A stretch of 23,411 nucleotides of DNA from Candidatus Heimdallarchaeota archaeon (GTDB lineage: Archaea; Asgardarchaeota; Heimdallarchaeia; Hodarchaeales; Hodarchaeaceae): positions 1-23,411 of the forward strand of contig JBHLSH010000062.1 in the NCBI GenBank assembly GCA_048881705.1, read 5' to 3'. The notes under the pieces were generated by a model. That model was given only the letters and a program-made list of their open reading frames with translations, searched no databases and had not been told where the DNA came from. Positions 5,974 through 23,367 of this stretch are shown here, in pieces (the first letter of the stretch is position 1; each line of letters begins with the position of its first letter). Both the position numbers and the translations under genes were made by a program.

Positions 5974-6016
5974 TAGTATTTTTAACACCTACGGGTACTA
6001 ATTCTATTGATCCTTT

Positions 6017-6262: not shown

Positions 6263-6663
6263 TTATCGACGCATCTGTTGCCCTAAAATGGTTTGTTGAC
6301 GAAATTCATACAGAGAAAGCACTCAAACTCAGAGAATTTCTTAGAAAGGACGCGACCCCTGTTGTTCCCGCCCTATTTTTTTATGAAATTGCTAACGTCC
6401 TTCGTTATAAACCAGAATTCGGTAGTAATGACGTGATGAACATAATTAAAACCCTTTTAAACTTTCAATTTAAAATTGAACTCCTTGATGAGAAATTAAC
6501 AGACCTTACAGCTAAATTAGCCTATCAATTTGGAATAACAATCTATGATGCGAGCTACATTGCCATTGGCCAGTTATATCAAGTCCATTTCATTACCGCA
6601 GACGAGAAATTGGTTTCCCAAATTCAAAACGAACAAGTAATTCTCCTTGAAAATTGGAAATAA
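6241..6663 (+). CDS. vapC: PIN-domain toxin (VapC-like)
   Basis: VIDASVALKWF, FFYEIANVL, TIYDASYIAIG and FITADEKL motifs. Confidence 0.9.
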   Translation: MARDQTLVIDASVALKWFVDEIHTEKALKLREFLRKDATPVVPALFFYEIANVLRYKPEFGSNDVMNIIKTLLNFQFKIELLDEKLTDLTAKLAYQFGITIYDASYIAIGQLYQVHFITADEKLVSQIQNEQVILLENWK

Positions 6664-6810
6664 TTAAGTGTCCACTTCATGTGAACCCAGTTTCCTGACA
6701 GATCTTGAGAGTGACTCTGTGATATATATCTAATAGACGGAAACAACCAATTCCGAGTTCATTCTTTTTCATGACCTGCTCAACAAGCCTCTCCGCGCAT
6801 CCCAAGAAGA

Positions 6811-6939
6811 AAGAGAAAAAGGAAAAAGCTCCATCCCCCGCGAAAAAAGGTTGGAGTCTGGGTGTTACGTCGTGTAGAGGTGTTCGACTTTAGGTTGTGA
6901 CAAGATGTAAGACGTTGTGATCCCAAAGAAGGTTTCAAA
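6811..6939 (-). repeat. Orphan copy 5 (type B variant)
   Basis: Reverse complement encodes FETFFGITTSYILSQPKVEHLYTT* (stop codon at 6865-6867). Retains the aaagctccatcccccg motif at 6825-6840. Confidence 0.9.
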
Positions 6940-6943
6940 ATTC

Positions 6944-7924
6944 TTAGAAATCTTGTAGATTGAACGCGATATCTCCACTCGTAGATGTCACCGTGAAATC
7001 ATATTTCGTCTCAGAAAGATCGTAACTTGATGAAGTATATGTTGTTAGATTATTAGGTAGCTGGATTAATCCCGATTCAGTGATTGCTGCAATATTTATT
7101 CCAAAAACTGGATTCAGATATAAATCAACATATACCATTTGTGCATAGCTGTTTATATTAAACTGCAGAGTACTAGGATTATTATTCAAGTTTTCCCATT
7201 GCACTAGATCTATTGTCGTTCGGAAGGAACGCCAGTCAGGTCGCAGCTGGATTTCCCATATTGTTAGATTTGAAGTATACCTATTCTCAAATAATTCGAA
7301 TCGTACCGCCGTCAAATCCGAATGAAGGACGAGTGTATCGGATACGTTGAACGTAACGTTAGTAAAGGATGCGGTATGCCCTGTCTCACTCCATCCATAA
7401 TTCAAATTCAGATGAGATATGGTTAAATCCTGTAACTTAACATTATAACCTTCAACGCAACCATCCAATATATCTAACGAGAAACTAATGTTTTCTTGAA
7501 TATAAAATCGTACATCGTTCCACCCAGGCGCTGGATCCACAGCTGCAAAACCCGAATCGTCAAATACCACCGCTATAGTCTCATTATCAACTTCAGAATA
7601 CAATAAAATTTCAGAGTACAGGAAGGCTTTGACGTGTGAAAGATTGGCCCCTTGCCTCCGAAAAGCGTCGACCTCGATCGATAGTACGTAATTAGCATCC
7701 TTTGGGGCCATAGATATGCTCGCATTTCCATAACTATGATCAATAGATAGTTTCACATTAGAATAGTTAGCAGGAATCGTATCTGTAACTGTAGCAAGGA
7801 ATGTTATTGGCCTTGTCCCTATAGATAAAATTAGATACATAAACAGGATATTCGTACCAATTAAAATTGAAACGACCACTGCCAATAAGATAAAGAATGT
7901 TAGTATTTCCCTTTTTGAGATCAA
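6944..7924 (-). CDS. Membrane-anchored beta-strand-rich surface protein (possibly DUF4097/adhesin-like)
   Basis: N-terminal TM helix, many N-x-S/T sequons, beta-rich body ending in TVTSTSGDI. Family assignment is tentative. Confidence 0.6.
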   Translation of the reverse strand: MISKREILTFFILLAVVVSILIGTNILFMYLILSIGTRPITFLATVTDTIPANYSNVKLSIDHSYGNASISMAPKDANYVLSIEVDAFRRQGANLSHVKAFLYSEILLYSEVDNETIAVVFDDSGFAAVDPAPGWNDVRFYIQENISFSLDILDGCVEGYNVKLQDLTISHLNLNYGWSETGHTASFTNVTFNVSDTLVLHSDLTAVRFELFENRYTSNLTIWEIQLRPDWRSFRTTIDLVQWENLNNNPSTLQFNINSYAQMVYVDLYLNPVFGINIAAITESGLIQLPNNLTTYTSSSYDLSETKYDFTVTSTSGDIAFNLQDF

Positions 7925-7938
7925 TATCCTACTCTCTT

Positions 7939-9267
7939 TTAGGATTTATTTCGTCTTTTTCTTTCGATTAAGCAGACGATTAATGCAACAAAACCAATTA
8001 GGCCTGAATACAACGTTATATTTGACGTAATTGGGGTGTCCATCACGTCTGTTCCTACAGACGACATGTCTGAAGAACTAGTACCAAAAGAACCAGTCGT
8101 TACTAACAGCATATCTGAAGAGCCAGAACCAAAAGAATACGTACTTCCTGCGAGGATGTAATCTTCGTCACCTGTTTGAATCACCTTGGAAGCAGCATCA
8201 TAGCCGAATCCCCCAAACGTCTGGTTCCATTCCGTGCTACCATTTTCATCAATTTTTACCAACCACATATCACCTTGCCCCATACCAAATGACCAGGTTC
8301 GTCCTGCTAGCGCATATCCTTGATCATGGGTCTTGATCATTGAATAACCATTATCCTTCGCTTCTCCCCCATAAGTTTGGTTCCATTGTACCAGGCCTTT
8401 TTCATCGATTCTTATCATCCATAGGTCTGCTGAACCAAGCCCAAATGAGTACGTACTCCCAGCAAGCGTATATCCGCCATCATGAGTTTGTACAACAGCT
8501 ACTGCTTCTTCGGGCCCTATTCCTCCATACGTATGGCTCCACTCAATGCCTCCTGTTTCATTGGTTTTTACTAGCCACATATCACTCTGCCCTGCCCCGA
8601 CTGACATAGTTTTTCCAACGAGTGCATACCCTCCGTCTTTCGTTGATACGAGAGAATAACCGTGGTCTAACATAGTCCCCCCAAAGGTCTGATTCCATTC
8701 CACGATTCCCGTTTCATCGGTCTTTATTAGCCACATATCATCATCCCCTTCGCCGTACGATCCGGTATATCCTACCAATGCAAAACCCCCATCTGGTGCC
8801 TGAACCACTGAGCGAGCAATATCCAATTTTGGACCTCCATATGTATGGTCCCATACGATCTCGCCGTTATCATTAACTCGTACCAACCACCCATCTGCAT
8901 TTCCCTCTATACCTGACTCTGTATATCCCGCCAAAACATATCCCCCATCAGCCATTTGGATGACGCTAGAACCTACCTCGTTATATTTTCCGCCGTAGGT
9001 GTGGTTCCATTCCGCGGTTCCATTCTCATCGGTTTTTACTAGCCAAAGATCCATCTTTCCTTCCCCGAAGGATTCAGTTGAACCAACAAGTAGATACCCC
9101 CCGTCCAAGGTCTGGATAACTGAATATGCGTAATCGAATGTAGTTCCGCCATAGGTCCGATTACTCCATTCACTTCCCGTCCTCAAGGATGAAAGCTTAT
9201 CCGCCTGAGGATCATATCTGGAAATAGTTTGTAATTGGATGTTTTGAAGACTGAGAATGAGTAACAA
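7939..9267 (-). CDS. Secreted seven-repeat beta-propeller surface protein with C-terminal TM anchor
   Basis: Seven ~52-aa repeats WN.TYGG...SV.QT.DGGY.LAG.T.S.G.G..D.WL.K.D..G, a Ser/Thr linker, a TM helix and the basic tail RKRRNKS. No in-frame ATG before an upstream stop, so the start is uncertain. Confidence 0.85.
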   Translation of the reverse strand: MLLILSLQNIQLQTISRYDPQADKLSSLRTGSEWSNRTYGGTTFDYAYSVIQTLDGGYLLVGSTESFGEGKMDLWLVKTDENGTAEWNHTYGGKYNEVGSSVIQMADGGYVLAGYTESGIEGNADGWLVRVNDNGEIVWDHTYGGPKLDIARSVVQAPDGGFALVGYTGSYGEGDDDMWLIKTDETGIVEWNQTFGGTMLDHGYSLVSTKDGGYALVGKTMSVGAGQSDMWLVKTNETGGIEWSHTYGGIGPEEAVAVVQTHDGGYTLAGSTYSFGLGSADLWMIRIDEKGLVQWNQTYGGEAKDNGYSMIKTHDQGYALAGRTWSFGMGQGDMWLVKIDENGSTEWNQTFGGFGYDAASKVIQTGDEDYILAGSTYSFGSGSSDMLLVTTGSFGTSSSDMSSVGTDVMDTPITSNITLYSGLIGFVALIVCLIERKRRNKS

Positions 9268-9510
9268 CGATAATATGAGGAATAATCTCAGCGTTGACCC
9301 CTCTTTACAGAAATCCGACCCACATTATACTTGAGTCTTGCTTATAACTGCTATGGCTTTGAGCTGATCTGCTTTTTCCTTGCTTTTAGATGGTTCTCGA
9401 TACATGCAGCTAAGTAATTTTCATTATCCTCAAGTGTATGACTGATATATCCTGAATCTTCTAAGACAAAACCTACGAATTGCTTCTTTCAATTCAGAAT
9501 ATCTTCAAGA

Positions 9511-9641
9511 AAAAAGTGATAAAGCTCCTTCCCCGTCTTAAAAAGAGAAAAGATGTTGGAGGTTATTTCTGGGTATAGAGCTGTTCCACTTCAGGCTGTG
9601 ACAAGAGGTAGAGCGCCGCAATCCCAAAGATGGTTCCAAAG
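9511..9641 (-). repeat. Native copy of the repeated unit (3' end and downstream tract of the intact gene)
   Basis: aaagctccttccccg...aaaagagaaaagatgttggaggttatttctgggtatagagctgttccacttcagg overlaps the stop of 9563-10144. Confidence 0.95.
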
Positions 9642-10144
9642 GGTAAGTTGATCAAATTCAGGGCTCCAATTACCATAGTTCCAATTCGCCCCGAATTCTC
9701 ATATTTCATGAGGCGCTTCCCACTGATAATACTGGCGAAGGCATATACCAAACACACCAAGGCTACTCCAAAGAGTATCACCGCGAGGAACGGAGCTATC
9801 TTCATCAGAATTACCTGCGTTTCCGGCTCCTCAATGAGCCCAGACCGCAGGAGCACATTAAATAACGGTGCCAATGCCAATAGCGCCATCCCAATCAAAA
9901 GCGCGAATACCCCAAAAACGATCTCAACGACCCCAAGAATTTGTATGTATCCTCTGTAGGTCTCTTGACGCGAGGGTTTCGGAACGTAAACATTCCCTGG
10001 CTTCCGTACCGCTAATTCCGTCCCACAGGCCTGACAAAAGAAATCCTCAGCGCCTACACTCGATCCACACTTCGTACAATATTTCGAAGCGGCTTGAAAC
10101 TCAATTTTTTTCTCGGTTGCTTTTGTACTATACATCCTCTTCAC
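9563..10144 (-). CDS. Zinc-ribbon membrane protein; anchor gene of the cassette array
   Basis: CTKCG...FCQACG double CxxC followed by 3-4 TM helices and the conserved tail NLPFGTIFGIAALYLLSQPEVEQLYTQK. Confidence 0.85.
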   Translation of the reverse strand: MKRMYSTKATEKKIEFQAASKYCTKCGSSVGAEDFFCQACGTELAVRKPGNVYVPKPSRQETYRGYIQILGVVEIVFGVFALLIGMALLALAPLFNVLLRSGLIEEPETQVILMKIAPFLAVILFGVALVCLVYAFASIISGKRLMKYENSGRIGTMVIGALNLINLPFGTIFGIAALYLLSQPEVEQLYTQK

Positions 10145-10150
10145 TTACTC

Positions 10151-10765
10151 TCATCGAATATTTCGGGTGTCATTCTTGTGGCGAGAACCAAACACAACAA
10201 CTAATCCTGGAATAATGAAACAGCACATTACAATTACCATCAGGATAATTTTCCATGGAAACGCTGAAAAGCTCCAATTTCCAAAGTTACTACCGAATTC
10301 TGACCCCATGTGACCCATCTCGCCACCAAAGCGTCCAAAGAATTCGCCCAGGCCTCTGCCAAGTTCACCAAACACTGTTCCCATGTGCCCTCCAAATTCT
10401 CCGAAGCCTCCAAAGAAAGCAGGGGCAAATATCGCTAGTAACGCCATTATCGCGATCATAAAGAATACAAATCCGACCAACGACCCAACAAACGAACCCG
10501 AATGGCACGACTCCCGTGTCCGATATACACGGTACGGCCGTACCCGACGAACTTCATGTGCTGGTACAAACTCTACCCGTTGAGCGACCGGCTCTTTCTG
10601 GGGTCCTGGCATCCGTATTGGCGCCTCCTCGTCTTCACTTGGGGTTCCCCAGGTCTGAACAGGCTTAACTTCGTTTTCTATGGGCCGTAACCTCTGGCCA
10701 CAATTCGGGCAGAATAATGAATCATCTTCGTTTTGGGCTCCACACTGCGTACAATATCTCATCAT
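10151..10765 (-). CDS. Zinc-ribbon membrane protein with Gly/Phe-rich loop
   Basis: YCTQCGAQN.....FCPNCG, two TM helices around FGGFGEFGG...FGRFGG. Stop lies 6 bp before the start of the next gene. Confidence 0.85.
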   Translation of the reverse strand: MMRYCTQCGAQNEDDSLFCPNCGQRLRPIENEVKPVQTWGTPSEDEEAPIRMPGPQKEPVAQRVEFVPAHEVRRVRPYRVYRTRESCHSGSFVGSLVGFVFFMIAIMALLAIFAPAFFGGFGEFGGHMGTVFGELGRGLGEFFGRFGGEMGHMGSEFGSNFGNWSFSAFPWKIILMVIVMCCFIIPGLVVVFGSRHKNDTRNIR

Positions 10766-11442: not shown

Positions 11443-11670
11443 TCTTTGGTAGCTTATTAGGTTTGGTCGTCCATCTGCAGTGATGAGTGAACCCAAGTCT
11501 ACTCCTGTGCAATTTCCGCTGGCCATTTTCAAAGCAGTGGAACACATGCTTCGGGGGATGAACTACGATCAGCAGTACGAGGTGGATAAAGCCAAAAGAC
11601 ATTATCACACCACGTCAAAGATCTTATTAGACGTCATAAAATGTGTTTCGAAGTACCGTATTGGAAGCTT
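11443..11670 (+). pseudogene. Truncated, frameshifted duplicate of the 5' UTR and MIT-like region of the Vps4-like gene (direct repeat of about 15604-15832)
   Basis: Shared tctttggtagcttattagg leader and 55 collinear codons from ATG 11483. A 1-bp deletion follows, then EVPYWKL versus DVPYEKL in the shifted frame. Confidence 0.93.
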
Positions 11671-11883
11671 CAAGGTAGTACAGTAACCATTATTCCACCC
11701 GTAAGCATTATGGGATCCCCGCTACATGAAAACGTCCATGTCATTGTAAAGTCAAGGGCGTTGTCAAAGACTATTAATGTAGACTCCTTTTCTTTCTTGG
11801 TGGATTGCCCCTTGTCATTGTCTTTTAGGCGAGAATACTACCAATGCGTTCTTCCCAATTTGGATGGAATAAACTAAGTACTG

Positions 11884-12564
11884 CTAAAGTAGAAGGGAGG
11901 GAACTAAATAGCTCATTATTTTCTTTTCCGCCCTTCTAAGATGTTCTTCATAGGTTCTACGATGGATGTTCATCTCTTTAGCCAGGTTTTCTAAGAAAAC
12001 ACTCCGTGGTAACTCATAATATCCCTTTCTATAAGCAAGCTTAAGTGCCTCTCGTTGTTTTGAAGTTAAATCATTTTTCAGAACATCTAGGGGAAGATAA
12101 AATGGATACGGTTCAGTAACGCTCTTCAGAGGTGCGAGTTTTAGTACATCCACTTTTGCACTAGGATCTTCCCTACGAATATCTTCGAGGATTAATCCTG
12201 CCTCCTCCGGTGTAACAATAAGATTGCTGATTTCTCGTCCTGCAAAATACTTCACTGGTGGAAGTTCAAGACAATTATATTTGTTGAAAATTTTATCTAA
12301 ACGAAGCACATCATAATAACAAAGGTCAACCACGAGTTGTACATGACCTTGATCAGGGAAAATAGCAATAACATTTCCTAGGGCCTCTTTCACATCTGTG
12401 ATTGCTGCTTCGAGATCTTTCTTACCTCCTTTTAATTCAATAATATCATGTTCAGCATTACACCAGCGTTGGATTTCAATTCTTGGATGATTTTGTGAAA
12501 AAGCCGAGAATTTACAATTGTGTTGAATTTCAAGTATGAAGGTGTATAACATTGAGCTCTCCAA
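11884..12564 (-). CDS. Archaeal regulator with C-terminal bacterio-opsin-activator-type HTH (HTH_10)
   Basis: LTSKQREALKLAYRKGYYELPR...LAKEMNIHRRTYEEHLRRAEKKI. Confidence 0.9.
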   Translation of the reverse strand: MESSMLYTFILEIQHNCKFSAFSQNHPRIEIQRWCNAEHDIIELKGGKKDLEAAITDVKEALGNVIAIFPDQGHVQLVVDLCYYDVLRLDKIFNKYNCLELPPVKYFAGREISNLIVTPEEAGLILEDIRREDPSAKVDVLKLAPLKSVTEPYPFYLPLDVLKNDLTSKQREALKLAYRKGYYELPRSVFLENLAKEMNIHRRTYEEHLRRAEKKIMSYLVPSLLL

Positions 12565-12678
12565 AGAAAAAAAGTGCCTCCTCTATATAACTTTACCGAC
12601 GTATGACTATCCGCATAATTATTTATCCCGTCATATGGAGGGTATGATTTATTATATCTCGAAGCACGGTATTTAATC

Positions 12679-13710
12679 ATGCAAAATCAAGAAAATAGTT
12701 CACATTCAATTATATCCTCCCCAAGTATCTTCAATTTCAATGCATGGTCATCTCATCGCAGTGCACAGCTTGTGCTATTTCTCGCAAATATTATTTGGGG
12801 AATCACTCCCCTATTTATTGAAATATCATTAGGTTATTTCACACCCCTTCAAACAACAACTCTCAGGTTTGGAGTCGCGGTATTGGTATTTTCTGTCATC
12901 ATAGCTCTGATGAAGGGGCGAAGCGGGTTTTCCATGCTATCAGGAAAAACAGTAATCACATTAGGATGGTTAGATGCGTTAGCGTATATAACAGTCACCG
13001 TTGGACAGGATATTACCACACCAGGCCTGGCTTTATTGGTTTCGTCATTTTATATATTCTTTGTCCCATTTCTTGCTTGGAAGATTGAAGGAACTGAATT
13101 AAGCGGGAGGGTAATAGTGATTGGAATTGTTGGGCTGGGAGGGATTTTTTTGATCAGTTTTAATGGAGATTGGACAAGTTTTTCCAATTCATCTATAATC
13201 GGGATAATTATCTTGATGCTGGCTGCTTTCATGTGGGGTTTTTACACCGTCATAACGGGAAAATTTCTGAATAAAGCAAAATCAGAACGTGAAGAAATTG
13301 ATCTCATGAGTCTTACATATGCGAGTCTCTTTCACACTTTTCTGGCACTGTTAATTCTGTCAATGATGACTGGTGATGTATCTTTTCATTTTCATCTCGA
13401 ATTACTACCTTATATCTTATTCTTGGGGATTTTCCCAACTATTATTGCCTTAGGTTCATGGAACTGGGCTATGGCTAGGTTAGGTTCAATTAATACCTCT
13501 TTTTTGCAATTATTTCAAATCATTATTCCGTTTATTTTAGAACTCATCTTTTTACAACAATTCTATTCAATATGGACATATACTGGGATTTTTCTGGTAT
13601 TTCTATCTATCATTTGGATAGACAAAGGAAAAAACTATGGCATGGAAAAAAAACAGCAGATAGAAATAAAAATGGGGGAAATCTATCGAGTGAAGGAGAA
13701 GATGATATGA
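12679..13710 (+). CDS. EamA/DMT-family transporter
   Basis: About 10 TM helices, ANIIWG, TTLRFGVA and duplicated EamA pattern. Divergent from the HTH_10 regulator. Confidence 0.88.
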   Translation: MQNQENSSHSIISSPSIFNFNAWSSHRSAQLVLFLANIIWGITPLFIEISLGYFTPLQTTTLRFGVAVLVFSVIIALMKGRSGFSMLSGKTVITLGWLDALAYITVTVGQDITTPGLALLVSSFYIFFVPFLAWKIEGTELSGRVIVIGIVGLGGIFLISFNGDWTSFSNSSIIGIIILMLAAFMWGFYTVITGKFLNKAKSEREEIDLMSLTYASLFHTFLALLILSMMTGDVSFHFHLELLPYILFLGIFPTIIALGSWNWAMARLGSINTSFLQLFQIIIPFILELIFLQQFYSIWTYTGIFLVFLSIIWIDKGKNYGMEKKQQIEIKMGEIYRVKEKMI

Positions 13711-14795
13711 ATATATTTTTATCAATTGTAATCGTATTAGGATTGTTACTGACGCTTTTTCTTGGATTACTGCTGTATAGGGTGTTTTTGAGATATTCGA
13801 CCAAAATAGACTCACCAAATGGTATAAGTTCATTAGAAGAACTTACGCTAGGCGGTATGAAACAATGGATCTTTATCAGAGGTATAGATCAAAACAATCC
13901 AGTTTTACTCTTTTTACATGGCGGTCCAGGAGCTCCTTTACTAGGAATATCCAGCTCCCGTAAAAAAGATAACGAACTGATTAAACATTTTACCGTAGTG
14001 CATTGGGATCAACGAGGGGCTGGTAAATCGTATTATCAGGATATTCCTGCTCATTCAATAACCTATGACCGCTTTGTCGAGGACTGCAATGAATTAATTG
14101 ATTATTTGCTTAATAGGTTTCACACCCCAAAACTGTTTATCGTCGCACATTCAGGGGGGACTGTTATAGGCATGAAAGCCGTGCACAGATATCCGGAAAA
14201 AGTATATGCCTATGTTGGAGTAGCGCAATCTATCGATGGGTATGAGGAACAAAAAGTCGCTTACGATTTCGTCCTTGAACAAGCTGAAAAAACTGGTGAT
14301 CTAAGGAGATATAATGAAGTCAAGGCCATAGGCTCTCCCCCTTATGACTCGCCAAGCAAGTACTTAAAACTCGCAAGGCATATTGGGCGTTACGGAGGCT
14401 TTATAGCTGATTCAGGTATTAAACAATATCTTACAATGGGAATCTTAATGACCGACTTCATCACTTCACCCGAATATTCATTATCAGAAGGAGTTCAAAC
14501 GTTCCTAAATAAAGGATTTACTTTTACTATGAAGGCGATCTGGGAGGAATACAAAAACATCAGTCTGACAAAAGAAATTCAATCAATTAAAGTCCCCACA
14601 TACTTTTTTGAAGGCAAATATGATATGACGACGCCCACTGTTCTTGTTGAGAGATTCTATGACAATTTAAATGCTGAAAAGGGAAAATATCTCATAATTT
14701 TTGAAAAGTCCGGTCATCTTCCCATGATTGAAGAAAAAGAACGATACGAGGAATTATTGATAAATACTGTATTGAAAAAGACGCACCATGTATGA
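13707..14795 (+). CDS. Alpha/beta hydrolase (prolyl iminopeptidase-like) with N-terminal TM anchor
   Basis: FLHGGPG, HWDQRGAGKS, AHSGG nucleophile elbow and SGH. Start placed at the ATGA overlap with the EamA stop, after an AAGGAG SD. Confidence 0.88.
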   Translation: MNIFLSIVIVLGLLLTLFLGLLLYRVFLRYSTKIDSPNGISSLEELTLGGMKQWIFIRGIDQNNPVLLFLHGGPGAPLLGISSSRKKDNELIKHFTVVHWDQRGAGKSYYQDIPAHSITYDRFVEDCNELIDYLLNRFHTPKLFIVAHSGGTVIGMKAVHRYPEKVYAYVGVAQSIDGYEEQKVAYDFVLEQAEKTGDLRRYNEVKAIGSPPYDSPSKYLKLARHIGRYGGFIADSGIKQYLTMGILMTDFITSPEYSLSEGVQTFLNKGFTFTMKAIWEEYKNISLTKEIQSIKVPTYFFEGKYDMTTPTVLVERFYDNLNAEKGKYLIIFEKSGHLPMIEEKERYEELLINTVLKKTHHV

Positions 14796-14924
14796 TCAAC
14801 GATTTGCCAAATGAACGGAACCGATACTTCAGTATTTTTCATGGAGTAAAAACTTAAAAGGTGGAACGACTCGGAAATGACTTAAATCCACTTACCAATC
14901 ACGGATTTTGCGATGAGGTCTTCT

Positions 14925-15386
14925 ATGAAATTCCTTGTGGCCTATTATTCGAGAACCGGAAATACTAAAACCCTTGGAATCGTCATCGGGAAAGCCCTTT
15001 CAGCGGATATCGATGAGATCATTGACAAGAAAAAACGCGTTGGAATAGTCAACTGGATACGAGCTGGACGCGATGCCCAAGGCAAAAAGCTAACGGAGAT
15101 TCAATTCGAAAAGAATCCGCAGGACTATGATTTGATCGTAATAGGATCTCCTATCTGGGGTGGTAATCTAACACCAGCTGTTCGGACCTATCTGACCATG
15201 CACAATTTGAAAGGGAAGAAAATTGGGTTTTTCATTTACTCAGCTATCGACAGATATGCTAAGGTCTTTCATCAACTCAAGGAAATGACTCCAGAATCAG
15301 AACACGCTGGCATTTTTACCGCATCACGATTCAGAAGAGGTGGCTACGAACCCGAACTTAATGCATTTATTGAAAAGCTCAAATGA
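14925..15386 (+). CDS. Flavodoxin-like protein
   Basis: LVAYYSRTGNT FMN loop and LIVIGSPIWGG. GAGGT SD precedes ATG 14925 (alternative start 14913). Confidence 0.88.
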   Translation: MKFLVAYYSRTGNTKTLGIVIGKALSADIDEIIDKKKRVGIVNWIRAGRDAQGKKLTEIQFEKNPQDYDLIVIGSPIWGGNLTPAVRTYLTMHNLKGKKIGFFIYSAIDRYAKVFHQLKEMTPESEHAGIFTASRFRRGGYEPELNAFIEKLK

Positions 15387-15389
15387 TGT

Positions 15390-15505
15390 GGTCTTGGGTT
15401 GTATTTAAGTCGAAATGTCATCGAGAAACATGGCGGAAGGCTGACTGCCTCTAGTGAAGGCGAAAACCAAAGGGCCACATTTACGTTTACTCTCCCGCGT
15501 GAAGA
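15390..15505 (+). pseudogene. C-terminal remnant of a histidine kinase HATPase_c domain
   Basis: GLGLYLSRNVIEKHGGRLTASSEGENQRATFTFTLP (G2 box to domain end). No upstream kinase; begins 3 bp after the flavodoxin stop. Confidence 0.75.
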
Positions 15506-15643
15506 ATTAGAGGAGAATTACCTACACTCACGTTCTACCTCCTCCAGTGGAATAAGGTTCTTTTCTCCGAAAACTTTTCTTTGACTCAGAATTTGTAAAT
15601 TATTCTTTGGTAGCTTATTAGGTTGGCTTGCCCACATTCAGTG

Positions 15644-16975
15644 ATGAGTGAACCCAAGTCTGCTCCTGTGCAATTTCCCGTGGCTATCTTCAAGGCAGTG
15701 GAGCACATGCTGCGGGGGATGAACTACGATCAGCAGCACGAGGTGGATAAAGCCAAACGGCACTATCGTGCCACTTCAAAGATCCTATTAGACGTCATAA
15801 ACCGTGTTTCCGATGTGCCTTATGAAAAGCTGTGGTTAACCCAAGCACAGATCTGTAACAATCGAGTCAAACAATTAATGTTCGGAGATAGAAACAAGTC
15901 TGCACAAGCTATGTCTCGGAGGCCATCTTCGAATAATCTAGCCACGAAGGCAGAGTCAAAGCACCAAAGGGGCCCTCAATCACAGGATGAAGACAAAGAA
16001 TTAGAGGAACGAATTGACGCGTGTCTGCTGAGTCCACGCGCCAAGTTAACATGGGATGATCTCATTGGACTAGACAAAATAGTGGAATTAGTCAAGGAGG
16101 TCGTTGTCTTGCCATTAAAGCATCCTAAGGTGCTCCAGAAACGGCCAGGAGCCCTCCGGACAGTGCTGACGTTTGGGCCACCTGGGTGTGGGAAAACACT
16201 GCTTGTTATGATCTTGACGGCACAAGTGAACATTAACGTCTATGCCGTATCCGCGGCGAGTCTGCTTTCGAAATGGTTCGGAGAGAGTCAGAAGATGATA
16301 AAGAAACTTTACACGACTGCTTGGAAGAATGCGCCTTCGATTGTCTTCATAGATGAGTTTGATGGGATGTTCGGGACAACGGGAGGCAATAGCGAGATGT
16401 CAAGTACGGTGGTTCAGATTCAAAAGGAATTATTGCAGTATATGGATGGTGCCTATACCCCAGAAATCAATCAGACCGTAACAATTGCAGCAACTAATAA
16501 TCCATGGGCATTGGATTCGGCCCAAGTGCGACGATTTGAACGGGTCTTGTATGTACCGCCTCCAAATCTGGAAGCAATCCAACATCTCTTAGCATGGGGG
16601 TTCCTAGAAGTTCCGAATAGCCTTAGGTCGCATGATCGCTATCAGCTCGGACTTCTGCTCAGAGGGTATACGCCCAGTGAAATAATCAATATCTGCAAGA
16701 CGGCCAAGGTACGGGCCTTCAAAGCAGGAATCCAGAACAATAAAATGCAATCCGTAAGTCGAGAGGATGTGTTGGCCAGTCTGGAGACGTTACAACCCAT
16801 GTTGAAACAACGAGGAAAAGCGGGAGTAGGAACCATTGAGTTTCGGAAGTGGAATCGCAAATGGGGGCGACCGCCCATTGAGTATCCAGTGGAACCATGG
16901 GAAGAACCTGCCTACCATCCTTCACAGGATCCCGATTTACAAAAGGAAAACTTGGTGAAATACTCCAAGTGGTGA
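15644..16975 (+). CDS. vps4: Vps4/CdvC-like AAA+ ATPase with N-terminal MIT-like domain
   Basis: Helical N-domain, LTWDDLIGL, Walker A GPPGCGKT, pore loop SKWFGES, Walker B IVFIDE, ATNNPW, RRFE Arg finger and a terminal FRKWNRKWG helix. Orthology to true Vps4 is unproven. Confidence 0.8.
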   Translation: MSEPKSAPVQFPVAIFKAVEHMLRGMNYDQQHEVDKAKRHYRATSKILLDVINRVSDVPYEKLWLTQAQICNNRVKQLMFGDRNKSAQAMSRRPSSNNLATKAESKHQRGPQSQDEDKELEERIDACLLSPRAKLTWDDLIGLDKIVELVKEVVVLPLKHPKVLQKRPGALRTVLTFGPPGCGKTLLVMILTAQVNINVYAVSAASLLSKWFGESQKMIKKLYTTAWKNAPSIVFIDEFDGMFGTTGGNSEMSSTVVQIQKELLQYMDGAYTPEINQTVTIAATNNPWALDSAQVRRFERVLYVPPPNLEAIQHLLAWGFLEVPNSLRSHDRYQLGLLLRGYTPSEIINICKTAKVRAFKAGIQNNKMQSVSREDVLASLETLQPMLKQRGKAGVGTIEFRKWNRKWGRPPIEYPVEPWEEPAYHPSQDPDLQKENLVKYSKW

Positions 16976-17054
16976 GAGAGGGTATGAGCAGTAGACGAGG
17001 AATCTAGCGGGAACGGGGGTCTCTCCAGATGCACAGCACATGAGGTGGAGAGGA

Positions 17055-20000
17055 ATGGCAGAGACAGAAAAACAAAGGGAGGCCGACACAACAGAGAAAG
17101 ACACCACTAGTACGAATGGTACGGATGAAAGTGGCGAAGGGGAGTTACCGGAGGAAGAGACACCCTCTATTATACCAGAAGAAGAGGAAAAATACGAAGC
17201 CGCTGTTACAGCGGATGAAATCGAGTTTCAGTCAACAGAGACCGTGGAATTAGACAGTTCTCTTCTGAACGACAATGACCATGATAGCACCCTCGGAGGG
17301 AATCATGTCACACTTGACAGTGAGGCCATGGATGAGGTTGAATCTTCTTCTCCTGAATCTCTAGGTAGAGACTTGGATTTGACTTCGACGGGAAGAGACG
17401 TATCATCAACCCCTATGACCGATTCTGATCTACGAGAGCTTACCACTGAGCCACTTATATTAGACGAACGTGAATCACTTCTTGAGGATGAAACAGACAA
17501 GAATGAGCTATCGCAGAAGGTCGAGAAACTCACAGTTGAAATCACTGAGATTGACAAGATAGAAGTTTATCGAGATATCCTGGCCATTGAGTATCTAGAC
17601 TTGGAAGAAGTTGCGGAGGGAAAAAAATCCTTGTCAGATATTCCCGAGGAGAAGTATTCTAATCAACCTTCAACGACTCTTTTAGAACCTCCGTCTGAAG
17701 TCCCTGTTGAAGCAAAAGAAGTAAGTGCCGATTCACAGGAAATGGTGACGATCCAGTTCCTAGGGCCACCCCTAGAGGGGGAGGTAAAGGCGGAAAGGGA
17801 GCAGTGGAACGAGCTTGAACGGCAGGAACTGGATATCATTGAACACACACCAGATGTGACTGAACCCATCTATGAACATACTGTTGATCAAGAACTTAGT
17901 GATCTAGAACTGGCACGGTTGCAACAAGCACTCGAAAAGCAGGGTCAGGAATGGAAAAAAAGTCAAGAAGAAATCGAGGCCCAACAGGGAGGGAAGGAAG
18001 AAGAGGCTGAAAAACAGGAGAATATTGACTTTCTGAATTCATCGCAGCTTAGAGAGAACGGTGAAGTTGCTTTATTCCACGAGGTTCAGGTGGGTAACGA
18101 GTCATTTGAACTAGGTCAAGCCGCAATTAGTCCACAGCATTTACTGGAAAGTTCCCAATGGAAAGGTGACATTACTCAAAAACAAGTCGAAGATCTATCG
18201 TTTCAGTTTACCGAAAAAGATCTCCTAATGACGGAGATGGCAAGTGATATTTCTCTCTATGCCCAGAATGTTAACCCATCAGAGGAAATTACCAGTGAAA
18301 ACATCAATGGAGATCTACTAGAACAAGTCACCCTCACAACACAGGATGTGGAGGCGAGATCATTAGATGAAGACACAGAATACCGATTAATAGACCATGA
18401 GAATCTATTCGGGGAGTTAGAGGAGCCTATTCAAGGAACGTCTCAATCACTTGAGCAGCATCTATTTGAAGAAACACTCCCAAAGGTTCAATTTTTTGAT
18501 AGTACTACAGATCTGGGTTCAGAATCCTATGAAGAGGATCTGGAGCTGGTTACGCAAGCCCCACAACTACCTGAACCACCTTCGTACGATTTCTTAGGAG
18601 AATTAGAAGAACAGGAAGAGTTTGACCGGGAACTACGTCATAAATACCGGGGCAGTCTACGTTCTCATCTAATACATTCTTTAGGGGGAGCCCGCTTTCG
18701 TAAACAAACCGCTTTGACATATGGGAGGGGAGAATCGGAGGATGACTCTTCTAGGCCATTACATGCCCAAAAGATGGAGACCTCCGAATTAAGGAGCGGT
18801 CAAGAAGAAAAAGATAAAGAATCCGACTTGAAACAAGAATTCAAGTTTAATTCAATGGAGACCAGGTTAGATGGGCAAGTCTTATCGAGAGAGGAATCAG
18901 ACAAACAAGCCACCTTACTTTACAATGATTTAATCGATGTACCACATAATTTGCGCGTTTGGAGCCATCTAGCACATCATGAAGAGTATCTTCGCTTTGC
19001 AGGGGCAGGTGTACTTTTTGACGCTCTTCCACCCACCCAAGAAGAACGACTCATAATTTTTGAAACGCTATTCAATGGACTATGGGAAAAAGCGAAGGAA
19101 AAGTTAATCTCATATGTTCGAGTTCGGAACCTTCCCGTAGATCCTCAAATTTTTGATATCATCTTTACCTCCTTAACAGAAAACATGCTGTGGAATGTGA
19201 TAGATCCGGAATGGACCCAGGCATTTTTTATCAGTAGATCAGCCTGGAATCAACAAGATAGGGAGGAACACTTGAATCTGAGCGGAAAAACGGTCATTAG
19301 TTTCTCGTCAAGTGATCATTCCATGTCAACATTAATAGGAGCTAAAACGCATTCCGCTTCGTTTCAATTACTAGAACCTAAAATCAATCCTTCTCAATTC
19401 AGAAACGTCTCAAATTGGATTATTGGATTTGAAAACTATATTAAAGGAATGCAACCAGACAGAGGATTAAAACAAGTCCCTATTCCCGTTTCTCAGCGAT
19501 TTCCGCGTTCAAAATCTTCACAGGCCGGAGTGGCACCTAATCCTACACATTGGAGTTATGCAGAAAAAGGATTGTGGCGGCATCTAGCATCTCATCTTCC
19601 TATCCTAGAACGGAGAAGAACGTATGTTTATTTAAATCGAATTATGAAAACCAAACAGCAAGAAGAAACTCTTATATCCGCGATTATTGATCAGTCTTGG
19701 TCTTCAGCTAAGGGTTTGATCCATCAGTTTGCCAAGGCTGCACACGTTAACATTGACAAGGAAATAATAGGTTACATCGTAGATGAACTAAGTAGTCACA
19801 TTAAGATAAGATTTGATGAGAGTTCTGAAGGAATTTATACCATTACTTCACAAACAACTGGTGGATCGAAACTTGAAACCAAAGTCATTTTTAAATTGGA
19901 TCAACAATTGCAACAGGTACTCCCAAGGATCCACACTAAATCCTCACTCATCCCCGTACAAGAACCTGTTCTTCAGGAATGGGCACTTGGAAATATCGAC

Positions 20001-20915
20001 TATTGGTTCCAAGAATTGGCAAACTTGCAGGATCCAAAAAACCTAGAAATTTATCAAAAACAAATATTGGTTTATCCTTTATCGAATGAAAGGAAAGAAC
20101 TAGAAATAAGGATTGGGAGTTCCAAGTTTCGTTCGGAGAATTTATACGAATTATTTGATGAGGCGCTCGCAGGTGAGTATGAGTGGACTAATATTGAAAT
20201 TCCTCGGGATATAAAGCTCAGGATAGATTTCTTTAATTTTTCCTCTGGTGCGAGAATTGCAGGCCATACAAAGGTAACGGTTGATTCACGAGTTCTTGCT
20301 TCATTAATCCCAAAACCAACTGAAAAGCAAATTGAAAGAATGGTATTGCATAAGGGAGTCATGGATTGCATAATTACCTCGATCAATAGAGATGTAGAGA
20401 ATAGTTTTCAGTATGTATCAAGTCAGGTAAGATTTCCAGACATTGCAAAATTACCGAAAAATGAGGATTTGGATATAGACAAATTTGGTGAACCAGATTC
20501 TGCAAATTTCAGGAAACCAGATATAATTACGATAAACATACGAGAGGACGATGGAAAAACGAAGATAGTAATTTCCATCATTGATGTGAAAAGAGCACGG
20601 TCAGAATTCGGACATAGTATAGTTAAAAACTCCAAATATTCTGAAAGAGGACGAGGATGGGGACAACCCTTGCGCGATTCACTTGGAGTAATACATAAAA
20701 TCAAGTCCATCTTCCCAGAGGTTCCTGATGATGATATTGAAGTTTCCTGCATGGTACTAACGGCAAAATCAGAACAAGATGCCCATACTTTGATGGTAGA
20801 AGGGGATATACTATTTTCCCAACAACCCGTATCAAGGATATTTCCATATATTGGTCGAGTGTGTGACTCAAATGACCAGGTCTTCCGACTAATCCGTCGA
20901 ATAAGAAAAGAGTAA
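17055..20915 (+). CDS. Large acidic multidomain protein with two internal repeats and a C-terminal PD-(D/E)XK-like nuclease domain
   Basis: Glu/Asp-rich N-terminal ~530 aa, repeats 205 codons apart, C-terminal KPDII...IIDVK motif. Start at 17055 or 17040. Confidence 0.8.
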   Translation: MAETEKQREADTTEKDTTSTNGTDESGEGELPEEETPSIIPEEEEKYEAAVTADEIEFQSTETVELDSSLLNDNDHDSTLGGNHVTLDSEAMDEVESSSPESLGRDLDLTSTGRDVSSTPMTDSDLRELTTEPLILDERESLLEDETDKNELSQKVEKLTVEITEIDKIEVYRDILAIEYLDLEEVAEGKKSLSDIPEEKYSNQPSTTLLEPPSEVPVEAKEVSADSQEMVTIQFLGPPLEGEVKAEREQWNELERQELDIIEHTPDVTEPIYEHTVDQELSDLELARLQQALEKQGQEWKKSQEEIEAQQGGKEEEAEKQENIDFLNSSQLRENGEVALFHEVQVGNESFELGQAAISPQHLLESSQWKGDITQKQVEDLSFQFTEKDLLMTEMASDISLYAQNVNPSEEITSENINGDLLEQVTLTTQDVEARSLDEDTEYRLIDHENLFGELEEPIQGTSQSLEQHLFEETLPKVQFFDSTTDLGSESYEEDLELVTQAPQLPEPPSYDFLGELEEQEEFDRELRHKYRGSLRSHLIHSLGGARFRKQTALTYGRGESEDDSSRPLHAQKMETSELRSGQEEKDKESDLKQEFKFNSMETRLDGQVLSREESDKQATLLYNDLIDVPHNLRVWSHLAHHEEYLRFAGAGVLFDALPPTQEERLIIFETLFNGLWEKAKEKLISYVRVRNLPVDPQIFDIIFTSLTENMLWNVIDPEWTQAFFISRSAWNQQDREEHLNLSGKTVISFSSSDHSMSTLIGAKTHSASFQLLEPKINPSQFRNVSNWIIGFENYIKGMQPDRGLKQVPIPVSQRFPRSKSSQAGVAPNPTHWSYAEKGLWRHLASHLPILERRRTYVYLNRIMKTKQQEETLISAIIDQSWSSAKGLIHQFAKAAHVNIDKEIIGYIVDELSSHIKIRFDESSEGIYTITSQTTGGSKLETKVIFKLDQQLQQVLPRIHTKSSLIPVQEPVLQEWALGNIDYWFQELANLQDPKNLEIYQKQILVYPLSNERKELEIRIGSSKFRSENLYELFDEALAGEYEWTNIEIPRDIKLRIDFFNFSSGARIAGHTKVTVDSRVLASLIPKPTEKQIERMVLHKGVMDCIITSINRDVENSFQYVSSQVRFPDIAKLPKNEDLDIDKFGEPDSANFRKPDIITINIREDDGKTKIVISIIDVKRARSEFGHSIVKNSKYSERGRGWGQPLRDSLGVIHKIKSIFPEVPDDDIEVSCMVLTAKSEQDAHTLMVEGDILFSQQPVSRIFPYIGRVCDSNDQVFRLIRRIRKE

Positions 20916-20936: not shown

Positions 20937-21626
20937 TTATTCATCCCAAAAACCTGGCGCAAAATAAAGAGAACAAGGATTTGAATCTTCTATTTCATTG
21001 TAGAGTTCGGGAGGAGGGAAAATGCTCCCCTGAGAATAAAAATATAACACAAATCCGTTCAGAAGTGTATGTTCAGTATTCTTTTGCAACAGGTCACTAA
21101 GTTTAATCCAAAAGTCATCAGGTGGTATCCCCCAGTACTGTATAAAGGGATTGAAAATCAAAGGCTCAAACACGAAGAACAAGAAACTATTGTCGAGTAA
21201 TGCGTTTCCTGGTAATCTGGGAAAGCCAAACCCTACCCAAGATATTTGTAAGACAAGCCAAACATATCGTAATTCGACCTCATCTTCAGAAGAAAGGTAC
21301 GATGTGGATGCTTTAAAATAGTCTGGACATAGAACTGGATTACACAAAAAACCAGGGGAACGGGTTACGGTGAAGTCAAATTCCTCTTTAGTCAATTTAT
21401 ATTTGACATCTGGGTGTATGAAAACGCGTTCCCTGCCATCACGTGGGACATTGATCTTGTAATCAAGCCATTCTTGGGGGGTATAAGTCAGCCATTTCTT
21501 GTCTCGGTCTGTCGGACGAAATTCGACGTGATCGGTTTGGTACTCAACCATATGTTGCGGGGGCCAGTCAGGAAACCGTTTCAGACACAGTTGGGAGAGT
21601 TTGTCATCAAATGGCACAATCATCAC
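20937..21626 (-). CDS. Hypothetical protein, candidate immunity/partner protein 1
   Basis: 229-aa ORF convergent on the nuclease gene, collinear paralog of 22669-23367, with its own TATA-like element (about 21668-21679). Function is inferred. Confidence 0.8.
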   Translation of the reverse strand: MMIVPFDDKLSQLCLKRFPDWPPQHMVEYQTDHVEFRPTDRDKKWLTYTPQEWLDYKINVPRDGRERVFIHPDVKYKLTKEEFDFTVTRSPGFLCNPVLCPDYFKASTSYLSSEDEVELRYVWLVLQISWVGFGFPRLPGNALLDNSFLFFVFEPLIFNPFIQYWGIPPDDFWIKLSDLLQKNTEHTLLNGFVLYFYSQGSIFPPPELYNEIEDSNPCSLYFAPGFWDE

Positions 21627-21842: not shown

Positions 21843-22652
21843 TTGAATAGGATTGGATATCGAACTTTTAATTCTGAGGATGTTATCAATTTGAAAGATA
21901 TGGAGGTAGGTAAACGCTCCCACAAGACCGAAGGAATACCCCTTACCAATGTTGAGCTTCGCTTACATCTTTTTAATTTTGGATCTGGAGAGAGGATAGC
22001 AGGGCATGCTCATATTTTGCTTGACCTTACAAACATAAATGCGATGACAAGATGGCATAGAGAGGAGGATATCGTAAAATTGATTACACAAGACCCCATT
22101 ATGGATTATATTATGGCTAATGTTGGGATTATAGATAAGAGTTTTCTATGGGTAAGTAAAGAAGTGGTTTTTACTGATTTGGACAAGCTACCTAAAAATC
22201 AAGATTTGGATAATGATCAGTATGGTATCCCTGAATATGCAGTACACAGGATAGCAGATATTCTTTGCGTTAGCGTTAAAGAATTGGGGGATCGGACCAA
22301 AATTGGAATTTTCGTCATTGATGTTAAAACGTCCCGTTCACGCTTTAGCCATGATATAATAACTTCTCCATTATCCTCAGGTAGAGGAAGAGGTTGGGGA
22401 CAACCCCTACGGAATTCACTTGGTGCCATCCACGTAGTTAAATCCATGTTTCCCCAACTTTCAGATGATGACATCGAGGTCTCATGTATAGTCATCACAG
22501 CAAAATTTAGTAATCATAGATCCATACTAACAGTAGATGGAGATATTGTTGTCTCTAGTGAACCTGTATCCCGAGTATTACCCTATGCGGGAAGACTATG
22601 CTATTCCAATGCTCAAATCTTTCGTTTAATCCGTAGAATCAAAGACCAGTAA
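21843..22652 (+). CDS. Orphan paralog of the C-terminal nuclease region of the 1291-aa protein
   Basis: Aligns from RIG to the end (FNF.SG.RIAGH, LPKN.DLD.D, D...IDVK, RGRGWGQPLR.SLG). Only a TTG start, with an in-frame stop at 21828-21830. Confidence 0.8.
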   Translation: MNRIGYRTFNSEDVINLKDMEVGKRSHKTEGIPLTNVELRLHLFNFGSGERIAGHAHILLDLTNINAMTRWHREEDIVKLITQDPIMDYIMANVGIIDKSFLWVSKEVVFTDLDKLPKNQDLDNDQYGIPEYAVHRIADILCVSVKELGDRTKIGIFVIDVKTSRSRFSHDIITSPLSSGRGRGWGQPLRNSLGAIHVVKSMFPQLSDDDIEVSCIVITAKFSNHRSILTVDGDIVVSSEPVSRVLPYAGRLCYSNAQIFRLIRRIKDQ

Positions 22653-22668
22653 CCGAAACATCGATATA

Positions 22669-23367
22669 TCAGGTTTCCACGTAATTCCAAAAAGCTTTGG
22701 GGAGATATAATGATTCAGGTTCTGGATCCATTATCTCTTCATAGAGGATCGGAGGTGGAAATATTCTTCCTTGTGAGGAGAAAAACAGATCAAATCCTCG
22801 ATGAAGCGTGTGATGATTTTCCCCTTCCATAATTTCGCTAAGTTTGATCCAAAAATCATCTGGAGGGGTTCCCCAATAGGTTATAAAGGGTTTAAAGATC
22901 AAGGGTTCAAACATGAACAATAGAAAGTCATCCTGAAGTAGAGCATTAATGGGTAACTTGGGAAAACCATATTGGACCCAAAGCATTTGTAATCCAAGCC
23001 AAACAAACCGATAGCTTACCTCATAGTCCGAAGTTAAATAAGAAGTCGCCCTTTTAAAATAATTGGGACATAAAACGGGATTGCATAATGTATTCAATGA
23101 GGAATCTTCTACAAACTCAAGTTCTTGCTTGGTTAGCTTATATTCGACCTCAGGATGCGTGTACACCCGTTGTCGACCATCATTTGGGATACTGAGCTTA
23201 TAATCCAACCATTCCTGTGGTGTGTAGGTCAACCATTCCCTCTCATCATCATCGGGGTGAAATACAATCGGATCGGTTTGGTGTTCAACCACGGGTGGCG
23301 GGGGCCAATCTGGATACAGTTTTAGACATAGTCGAGAAAGCTTGTCATCAAATGGCATAGCGATCAC
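22669..23367 (-). CDS. Hypothetical protein, candidate immunity/partner protein 2
   Basis: 232-aa paralog of 20937-21626 (WLTYTPQEWLDYK, LCNPVLCP.YFK, FEPLIF.PFI.YWG.PPDDFWIKLS), in the same convergent arrangement. Confidence 0.8.
   Translation of the reverse strand: MIAMPFDDKLSRLCLKLYPDWPPPPVVEHQTDPIVFHPDDDEREWLTYTPQEWLDYKLSIPNDGRQRVYTHPEVEYKLTKQELEFVEDSSLNTLCNPVLCPNYFKRATSYLTSDYEVSYRFVWLGLQMLWVQYGFPKLPINALLQDDFLLFMFEPLIFKPFITYWGTPPDDFWIKLSEIMEGENHHTLHRGFDLFFSSQGRIFPPPILYEEIMDPEPESLYLPKAFWNYVET

Follow-up and report, generated by a model that had tools for sequence, protein, structure and literature searches.

A divergent Vps4-family ATPase gene paired with genes for giant acidic proteins of exchangeable C-terminal ends in one genus of Hodarchaeales

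Contig JBHLSH010000062.1 of a Hodarchaeales genome (assembly GCA_048881705.1, here genome G000; 3.96 Mb in 155 contigs) carries a gene for a divergent ATPase of the Vps4 family and, directly downstream on the same strand, a gene for a giant acidic protein of 1291 amino acids (aa). The contig, C62 in our numbering, was analyzed over its whole length of 23,411 nucleotides (nt) and is referred to below as the window. Vps4 is the motor that recycles ESCRT-III, and its eukaryotic relatives have gained other clients such as tubulin. Here we describe the ATPase, the conservation of the gene pair, the short motif (tag) common to the partner proteins and the exchangeable C-terminal ends that follow it, and weigh what the pair may be for.

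The gene pair and its conservation

The ATPase gene (15644..16975, forward strand) encodes an MIT domain, a linker, one AAA cassette, a C-terminal helix and a family-specific tail. Its open reading frame (ORF) opens at a TTG at 15623, and the ATG at 15644 is probably the start, because the database form of the protein (P0003) has 443 aa. The partner gene occupies 17040..20915 on the same strand in our ORF scan, while its database form (P0123) begins at the ATG at 17055 and has 1286 aa. The original prediction, made from the letters of the window, had placed an MIT-AAA gene directly upstream of and co-oriented with the 1291-aa gene; the ORF scan confirmed this arrangement, with a gap of 64 nt that contains no T-run. 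Contigs from the possible source samples (Logan) bridge the junction of the two genes (13098-17645) and are not independent of the assembly.

We searched 400 Asgard genomes with the ATPase, scoring the best four candidates per genome at E≤1e-70, and obtained six loci in five genomes, all of the window's genus. A seventh locus, with the most divergent member (P0065, 33% identity), came from the search with the tag. At each of the seven loci (7/7, in six genomes of one genus) a large acidic ORF with the tag lies directly downstream of the ATPase gene on the same strand. Conservation of the gene pair, on which the original prediction had made its proposal depend, was therefore found at every ATPase locus. 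The count comprises seven loci in six related, non-independent genomes, and about 20 of the approximately 30 known relatives lie outside it. The spacing between the two genes ranges from a 16-nt overlap to 64 nt in the loci with a called partner start (6/7), and the remaining neighbours vary among the seven.

The partner has 1291 aa in the window, 1107 aa at G018:C21, 1009 aa at G018:C266, 951 aa at G005:C208 and 1500 aa at G001:C26, where it overlaps the ATPase gene by 16 nt. At G003:C36 the partner has 861 aa as called, with an ORF call that begins late, and at G008:C46 (L026) it is split into 5375-6001 (208 aa, 42% aspartate plus glutamate, D+E) and 6188-9793 (1201 aa). The split could be a frameshift, an assembly error or real, and the G003 locus, 92% identical to it, also lacks a clean full-length partner call.

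A hidden Markov model (HMM) of the tag matched ten loci in 8 of the 400 genomes (E 3e-11 to 3e-26), all in one genus, so that 8 of the 22 genomes of that genus, our own included, carry it. The 378 other Asgard genomes yielded a single weak match (E 0.0055), which we read as chance. Seven of the ten tag loci have the ATPase directly upstream. Among the three others, G018:C158 encodes a full-length tag protein with a different gene upstream, and G021:C34 is interrupted by a contig end. At G015:C257 (L125, ~9388-10299) a frame opens, after stop codons, at the tag (IPEAPPFDFQAELD) and continues like the end of the G003 partner; to judge from its sequence it resembles a C-terminal cassette that is either truncated or spare, and it has neither ATPase nor acidic region. 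Genome G018 alone carries three tag proteins and two ATPases.

None of 82 control loci around other AAA genes carries the tag pattern (0/82). Eighty of them came from a scan of metagenome contigs with profile A3 and two from a scan of genome contigs with the window ATPase (P0001). The former returned at least 80 generic Vps4/AAA loci at 25-35% identity, with no subfamily member among the matches listed; the latter returned one 98%-identical fragment of 48 residues at a contig end and one unrelated bacterial AAA protein. Scans of viral contigs with profiles A5 and A3 found no relatives.

Domain make-up of the ATPase and its relation to Vps4

The N-terminus of the ATPase is an MIT-like three-helix domain (15692..15877). 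Pfam MIT was not reached at E≤0.01 when the window ATPase was scanned alone; in a scan of the whole genome, the window gene (15692-15877, E 0.03, positions 3-64 of 66) ranked next after the canonical Vps4 (E 1.7e-8), which had the best match. Across the subfamily, Pfam MIT matches 18 of 28 members (best E 7.6e-7). A profile of the N-domain (A4, six sequences) aligned over its full length to the MIT domains of CdvC (E 1.1e-4), Sulfolobus CdvC, yeast and human Vps4 and calpain-7. The matches of A4 to solved MIT domains have E-values of 1e-4 to 3e-2, and only short matches to designed TPR repeats ranked above them. An N-domain unlike MIT would have spoken against the original prediction, and both the Pfam matches and the profile identify the domain as MIT-like.

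The AAA core (PF00004, 16163..16558) spans residues 181-312 of P0001 (Pfam, E 9e-31). Walker A (GPPGCGK), pore loop 1 (KW.GE), Walker B (DE), the sensor-1 N and R303/R304 of the RRF motif are invariant or nearly so in the 28 members, and in a direct alignment the catalytic and pore residues line up with those of Asgard Vps4. A conserved C-terminal block, GVGTI.FR.WN...G.P.I.YP...WE in the 28-member alignment, corresponds in the window to FRKWNRKWG followed by the tail PxIxYPxxxWE (16820..16972). FRKWNRKWG aligns with the F/Y..W...FG helix of Vps4, with W410 invariant, and the alignment to human VPS4B runs through chain residue 435, across the lid and the C-terminal part. Pfam Vps4_C has no match in the window ATPase at E≤0.01, and of the 42 families matched in the 28 members it does not figure in the top 25. 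The subfamily is collinear with Asgard Vps4 from the MIT domain to the C-terminal helix, beyond which it has an extra tail of 25-45 aa that is absent from Vps4.

By its scores, the ATPase is of the Vps4 type. The best NCBIfam model is CdvC, with 167.3 bits over model positions 20-355 of 370, against a cut-off of 650 bits. The canonical Vps4 of the same genome, with 290.1 bits to cell_div_CdvC, is likewise under 650, and therefore the cut-off is specific to TACK-type CdvC. Among solved structures, yeast Vps4 matched the window ATPase in one stretch (174.8 bits, query 78-382); Cdc48/VAT entries ranked higher through two domains, the better of which scored 132.4 bits. The family profile aligned in a single stretch to yeast Vps4 (240.4 bits, profile 16-357 to chain 11-365) and human VPS4B (239.8 bits, 10-356 to 6-361), compared with 164.1 bits for the best single Cdc48-type domain. 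Since these alignments begin near the N-terminus, they run through the MIT domain. When only the lid and C-terminal part were searched against PDB, Vps4 came first (33.7 bits), followed by katanin (28.7 bits) and then CdvC, MEI-1, spastin (16.3 bits) and fidgetin-like 1. In the genome itself, the best other domain for an HMM of the subfamily AAA core was that of the canonical Vps4 (206.8 bits); twelve Cdc48 domains scored 70-161 bits (≤161.2) and two PAN-like proteins 116-128 bits. A search of 5.8 billion proteins returned approximately 30 distinct relatives (P0004-P0032, P0065, P0069) at 31-51% identity, after which the matches were to Cdc48. A precomputed Pfam MIT match exists for six of these relatives, and the sources of the set are labelled as Promethearchaeota, Hodarchaeales or Thorarchaeota metagenome-assembled genomes.

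The genome has a canonical ESCRT locus elsewhere. On contig C15, a Vps4 gene whose database record lists Pfam MIT, AAA and Vps4_C adjoins two Snf7-family genes, and these two are the only matches of the Snf7 model in the whole genome. The original prediction was thus right that the window holds no ESCRT-III ORF, and also that the ATPase is a Vps4-type paralog. ORF and Pfam checks found no ESCRT-III among the neighbours of the seven ATPase loci. As a separate observation, P0017, a subfamily ATPase, and P0162, a canonical Vps4, each have a record in which the longest contig measures 111,628 bases, and these two paralogs may share a contig.

A maximum-likelihood tree was built from 58 AAA domains: 28 of the subfamily, 16 of Asgard Vps4, and 12 Cdc48 D1/D2 and 2 PAN domains from the own genome, with no eukaryotic katanin, spastin, fidgetin or Vps4 sequences and with long branches flagged. 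The 28 subfamily members group together (100/100), with a stem length of 1.63 changes per column, and Asgard Vps4 forms a separate clade (91/87). In this phylogeny against bona fide Vps4, a check that the original prediction had called for, the subfamily lies outside Asgard Vps4, and its union with Vps4 has a support of only 76/63. We consider the ATPase Vps4-derived, as judged from its architecture and scores. Since the tree separates the clades and gives their union weak support, we stop short of counting it in the orthologous Vps4 group.

A published survey reported three divergent Hodarchaeota paralogs that fall outside the main Asgard Vps4 clade, occur in genomes with a regular Vps4 and are unlinked to ESCRT genes; it termed them a likely "fast evolving, subfunctionalized subfamily" (PMC11188069). 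Apart from these three outliers, archaeal Vps4-type ATPases are reported there with ESCRT-type neighbours. The three are most likely members of the present subfamily. The passages of that article on the Hodarchaeota paralogs name no partner gene, motif or function, and a literature search, whose scope did not extend to the supplementary lists of the article, found no description of the partner protein or the tag.

The tag and the exchangeable ends of the partner proteins

The giant protein has no Pfam, NCBIfam, PADLOC or PDB sequence match. Its N-region (residues 1-495, 17040..18524) is polyacidic and rich in Ser and Thr, and its sequence is not conserved. The acidic character noted in the original prediction was confirmed, with a D+E content of 0.22-0.31 per 100 aa and a summed net charge of -98 over the first 500 aa. 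In the ten full-length partners, the region before the tag measures 340-805 aa, with D+E 0.22-0.32 and a net charge of -91 to -151, and is followed by sequence of ordinary composition. The region is kept in composition only, with BLAST similarity limited to close kin, and is probably disordered.

The tag (residues ~497-535, 18528..18644, LELVTQAPQLPEPPSYDFLGELEEQEE) is common to all partner proteins. In an all-against-all BLAST comparison, a stretch of ~50 aa around residues 497-548 was the only one common to unrelated partners, with the consensus (s)LEL(v)SQxPxLPEPPPYDFxxELExxEE. It is present in all 12 large partners (12/12), including P0126, P0128 and P0129, which were found solely via their C-terminal domain, and it sits between the polyacidic region and C-terminal parts that differ among the loci. 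A homologue search with the tag region alone returned only the giant protein itself. Of the two Pro-rich motifs that the original prediction had singled out, PQLPEPP (residue 508) is the core of the tag; LLEPPSEVP (residue 214) is also present, and lies in the non-conserved acidic region.

The tag bears some likeness to known ligands of MIT domains. The consensus of the MIT-interacting motif MIM2 is phi-P-x-phi-P-x-x-P-phi-P, and CdvB has the motif RELLPELPHPP (PMC5840170). (L/I)-P-E-P-P of the tag fits the first five positions of MIM2 if Pro is accepted at the second phi, and LPEPP resembles LLPELP of CdvB. In IST1, an extended (strand) element and an adjacent helical MIM can occupy one MIT domain (PMC9477494), and the tag has a similar layout, with LPEPPPYDF followed by the acidic, helix-like ELExxEE. 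By eye, the tail of a canonical ESCRT-III protein of the genome (G000:C15, L003, 2701-3315, FGLPSPDIRSQELQKELEKIKKS) also has a Pro-rich element followed by an EL..ELE helix. A reading of the tag as a ligand of WW domains, which are possible readers of PPxY, gains no support, as no WW domain was found in the own genome at E≤0.1.

Behind the tag, the partners differ. Among the 12 partner proteins there are at least six unrelated C-terminal types: type A in the window, G018:C21, P0126, P0128 and P0129; type B in G005 and G018:C266; one in G008 and G018:C158, which have 280 aa in common and then diverge; and a unique end in each of G003, G021 and G001. The middle region of the window protein (residues ~600-1023, 18837..20108) aligns with the type-A relatives and has an apparent internal duplication, in that residues 617-793 and 832-1000 of P0002 align to one and the same stretch in the G018:C21 protein. 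The orthologous loci of G003 and G008 are 92% identical in DNA over 2182 nt, which cover the ATPase gene and the 5' part of the partner gene, and 75% identical over the following 711 nt; their similarity ends ~48 codons past the tag. Read from these alignments, the pattern is a cassette replacement behind a conserved junction.

The C-terminal domain of the window protein, CT-A (residues 1024-1291, 20109..20912), has a PD-(D/E)xK-like signature formed by D1161, D1182 and K1184 (nt 20511-20591). The family keeps R.PD(I/F), (D/E)xK ~20 residues further on, and then G.G.GQ..RD and DIEVS; among the nine sequences that cover the site, the first D is present in 9/9, (D/E)xK in 8/9 and the K in 9/9. 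A CT-A profile found ten representatives among 1.84 billion proteins, four of them large proteins with a C-terminal CT-A and the others short, stand-alone or partial; among the 400 Asgard genomes, only G000 and G018 have CT-A. Pfam gave no match at E≤0.01 and a weak one to Herpes_UL24 (E 0.21) over the motif region. The CT-A profile returned only chance matches in PDB, and PDB sequence searches with P0002 and with the C-terminal parts of the G008 and G001 partners returned none. In hhalign, CT-A aligned to a six-sequence alignment of Hjc, the Holliday junction resolvase, with the motifs in register (P 0.0043, probability 8%), compared with P 0.43-0.68 for three unrelated control alignments. 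Judging from these motifs, CT-A is likely a PD-(D/E)xK nuclease. The original prediction had called the giant protein a nuclease: the conserved D...(D/E)xK signature speaks for this, the lack of a significant Pfam or PDB match against it. As a description of the partner in general the term fails, as the nuclease-like end is one of at least six and so belongs to only some members. Separately, Pfam Hjc has no match in any of the 16 genomes of the window's genus that were searched (16/16, own included) and does match in 6 of 10 genomes from outside the genus that belong to its order and class.

Types A and B co-vary with a neighbouring gene. In the window, CT-A is followed tail to tail by a gene of 229 aa on the reverse strand (20937..21626, cognate gene 1). 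A stand-alone (orphan) copy of CT-A comes next on the forward strand (269 aa, 21843..22652; 45-46% identity to residues 1024-1291 of P0002), with homology from its own ORF start and stop codons upstream, and it too is met tail to tail by a reverse-strand gene, of 232 aa (22669..23367, cognate gene 2). The two cognate genes are 62% identical to each other, and the corresponding gene at G018:C21 (4649-5311) is 41-44% identical to the window copies. This type-A neighbour (~225-230 aa) is thus found beside 3/3 CT-A copies, and in the 400 genomes its family occurs only there, apart from a 29-aa remnant in G002. From this co-occurrence, the 229-aa neighbour is a probable inhibitor or immunity protein. 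Type-B ends are followed by a co-oriented WD40-like protein in 2/2 copies (E 1e-40 between the two). At the ends of other types, the next genes encode an aconitase-X-like protein (by sequence reading), MoxR-VWA, NfeD and an A24 peptidase. The MoxR case is at G001:C26 (L124), where a MoxR-type AAA_3 ATPase and a DUF58/VWA protein follow the partner gene at 11826-14322.

A candidate effector module and its alternatives

We propose, with a probability of about 0.5, that the pair belongs to a genus-restricted, Hodarchaeales-type accessory module in which a Vps4-derived unfoldase is dedicated to a polymorphic effector family. The ATPase would be a fast-evolving Vps4 offshoot that still has the MIT domain, a catalytically intact AAA cassette, a pore loop to grip substrates and the C-terminal helix. 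It would have lost its coupling to ESCRT-III and would serve a single client, the product of the giant gene directly downstream. The client would consist of a polyanionic N-region, the conserved tag and an exchangeable C-terminal region. The MIT domain may dock on the tag, in the way that the MIT domain of Vps4/CdvC docks on Pro-rich MIM2 or on the tandem strand-plus-helix MIMs of IST1, and the hexamer would then thread the adjacent chain and so unfold, release, activate or hand over the C-terminal effector. The C-terminal parts would serve as the cassettes of a polymorphic effector system and be exchanged immediately after the tag. The end present in the window would be a PD-(D/E)xK-like, probably nuclease domain with a neighbour as its probable inhibitor, plus a spare domain-partner pair.

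A polymorphic effector system fits best because of the junction-anchored swapping, the spare cassette, the strict co-occurrence of end and neighbour, the patchy spread and the multiple copies per genome. As in the polymorphic toxin systems CdiA-CT and Rhs, exchangeable C-terminal ends are set off by a short conserved junction motif, neighbouring genes co-vary with the end (types A and B), and a spare end-plus-partner cassette lies downstream. Unlike in those systems, no recognised trafficking or secretion domain or apparatus was found, the N-part is conserved in composition only, the type-A neighbour is convergent and the variable parts are very large (400-960 aa). We know of no polymorphic toxin system with a dedicated Vps4-like ATPase. 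PD-(D/E)xK domains are common toxins in polymorphic toxin systems, and archaeal examples of such systems are mentioned (PMC6393860).

Like Vps4/CdvC, the ATPase has MIT, a linker, one AAA cassette that bears the KW pore loop and the RRF arginines, and a counterpart of the C-terminal helix, in an arrangement collinear with that of Vps4 from Asgard archaea, yeast and human; it differs in its 167 bits against a cut-off of 650, the missing Pfam Vps4_C match, the extra conserved C-terminal tail and its own long-branched clade. The client, with a Pro-rich element followed by an acidic helix-like stretch, is reminiscent of MIM2 and of the tandem MIMs of IST1, whereas it has no Snf7 match and its tag is internal and follows half of the MIM2 consensus.

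Several results weigh against our proposal. Two tag proteins, at G018:C158 and G015:C257, have no adjacent ATPase. In the tree the subfamily falls outside Asgard Vps4, and the branch that sets the two together apart from Cdc48 and PAN has the support of 76/63 given above. The (P/S)-Y-D-F of the tag misfits the second half of MIM2 (x-x-P-phi-P), the tag is not at a C-terminal tail, and no ESCRT-III tail of the own genome is picked up by the tag HMM at E≤0.01. No nuclease family matches CT-A significantly, and one of the nine CT-A sequences that cover the site lacks the acidic residue. Four other end types have no evident cognate neighbour, and the genes next to them are housekeeping-like or unrelated. 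Immunity genes are typically co-directional with the toxin gene, and the type-A neighbour gene is convergent. Pfam, NCBIfam and PADLOC revealed no export signal, secretion or delivery gene or PADLOC system in the partners or neighbours; no signal peptide was found in the partner, and no transmembrane segment was seen.

Some of the same results would suit a function outside conflict, in which the giant proteins are cytoplasmic scaffolds, adaptors or condensate formers that the Vps4 paralog recycles or disassembles, much like Vps4 with ESCRT-III or spastin and katanin with tubulin, and their C-terminal parts bind cargo or partners. The ATPase is Vps4-like and its client has a polyacidic region; spastin and katanin, which share the MIT + AAA layout of the same AAA clade, engage the acidic tails of tubulin, and the long polyacidic segment of the client could offer a pore something to hold. 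Neither Pfam, in eight large partners, nor PADLOC, in five, recognised any family of toxins, secretion or defence, and the four C-terminal types without an evident cognate neighbour fit as well. The parallel with spastin and katanin has its limits, in that Vps4 outscores both in the lid comparison (33.7 vs 28.7 and 16.3 bits) and the client is not tubulin-like. Scaffolds of core cell biology would also not be expected to be patchy within a single genus, with several copies in G018; the abrupt replacement of ends behind a conserved junction, the orphan domain-partner pair and the strict co-occurrence are traits of accessory conflict systems. We therefore regard such a scaffold as unlikely.

Slightly more doubtful is an intracellular antiviral (abortive-infection) module, in which the ATPase would sense or be triggered by infection and free the effector, in the window a nuclease, from inhibition by its own acidic region or by the neighbour protein. 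Defence systems commonly have variable effector ends, the searches revealed no export signal, and the window is rich in accessory genes such as those for PIN toxins. The ATPase also matches the PADLOC models IetA and TRIP13 (best E 1.1e-29) and NCBIfam IteA, but these matches cover the generic AAA core only and rank below the CdvC and Cdc48 models, and no partner protein matches any PADLOC model. Polymorphic toxin loci are the more typical setting for spare domain-partner cassettes and for swapping anchored at a junction. The absence of relatives on viral contigs is neutral in this respect.

The original prediction had entertained a candidate delivery system, and one version of it would make the Vps4 paralog a dedicated toxin loader, with LPEPPPYDF as a late-domain or MIM-like address that would take cytoplasmic effectors, once unfolded or primed by the ATPase, into ESCRT-made vesicles or protrusions for delivery to competitors. 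We consider this version improbable; if true, it would be the first ESCRT-derived route of toxin export and a prokaryotic forerunner of PPxY-type cargo signals. That the adjacency is meaningless, the ATPase being a redundant Vps4 copy that keeps its MIT domain to serve the canonical ESCRT-III proteins, whose Pro-rich and helical tails are present in the genome, and the giant gene being unrelated, is scarcely credible given that 7/7 loci keep a tag protein downstream while their other neighbours differ, that the subfamily stands apart from Vps4 on a long branch (1.63, 100/100), and that the published Hodarchaeota paralogs are called subfunctionalized and unlinked to ESCRT genes (PMC11188069).

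Under the proposed effector module, an offshoot of Vps4, from the group of archaea nearest to eukaryotes, has a client other than ESCRT that is obvious from the genetics and a conserved docking candidate of the size of a peptide, which makes MIT-motif recognition and client switching testable with a domain of ~90 aa and a peptide of ~40 aa. To our knowledge, the conflict biology of Asgard archaea is almost uncharted. If the ends are toxins, they would represent a new kind of polymorphic effector system in these archaea and provide a first function for large "dark matter" proteins.

Elsewhere in the window lie further accessory genes, namely those for two PIN toxins, an S41 peptidase, zinc-ribbon proteins, an HTH_10 regulator, EamA, a hydrolase and a flavodoxin. 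A direct repeat of 207 nt (11443-11649 and 15604-15810, 87% identity) duplicates the leader and the first ~55 codons of the ATPase gene 4.1 kb upstream. Between its two copies are the HTH_10, EamA, hydrolase and flavodoxin genes, as if they had been inserted into or beside the 5' end of the ATPase gene. In sequencing run X3, one contig of a related strain joins position 15384 back to 11859 with 42 other letters between them, a junction that hints at another arrangement of the inserted block in that population.

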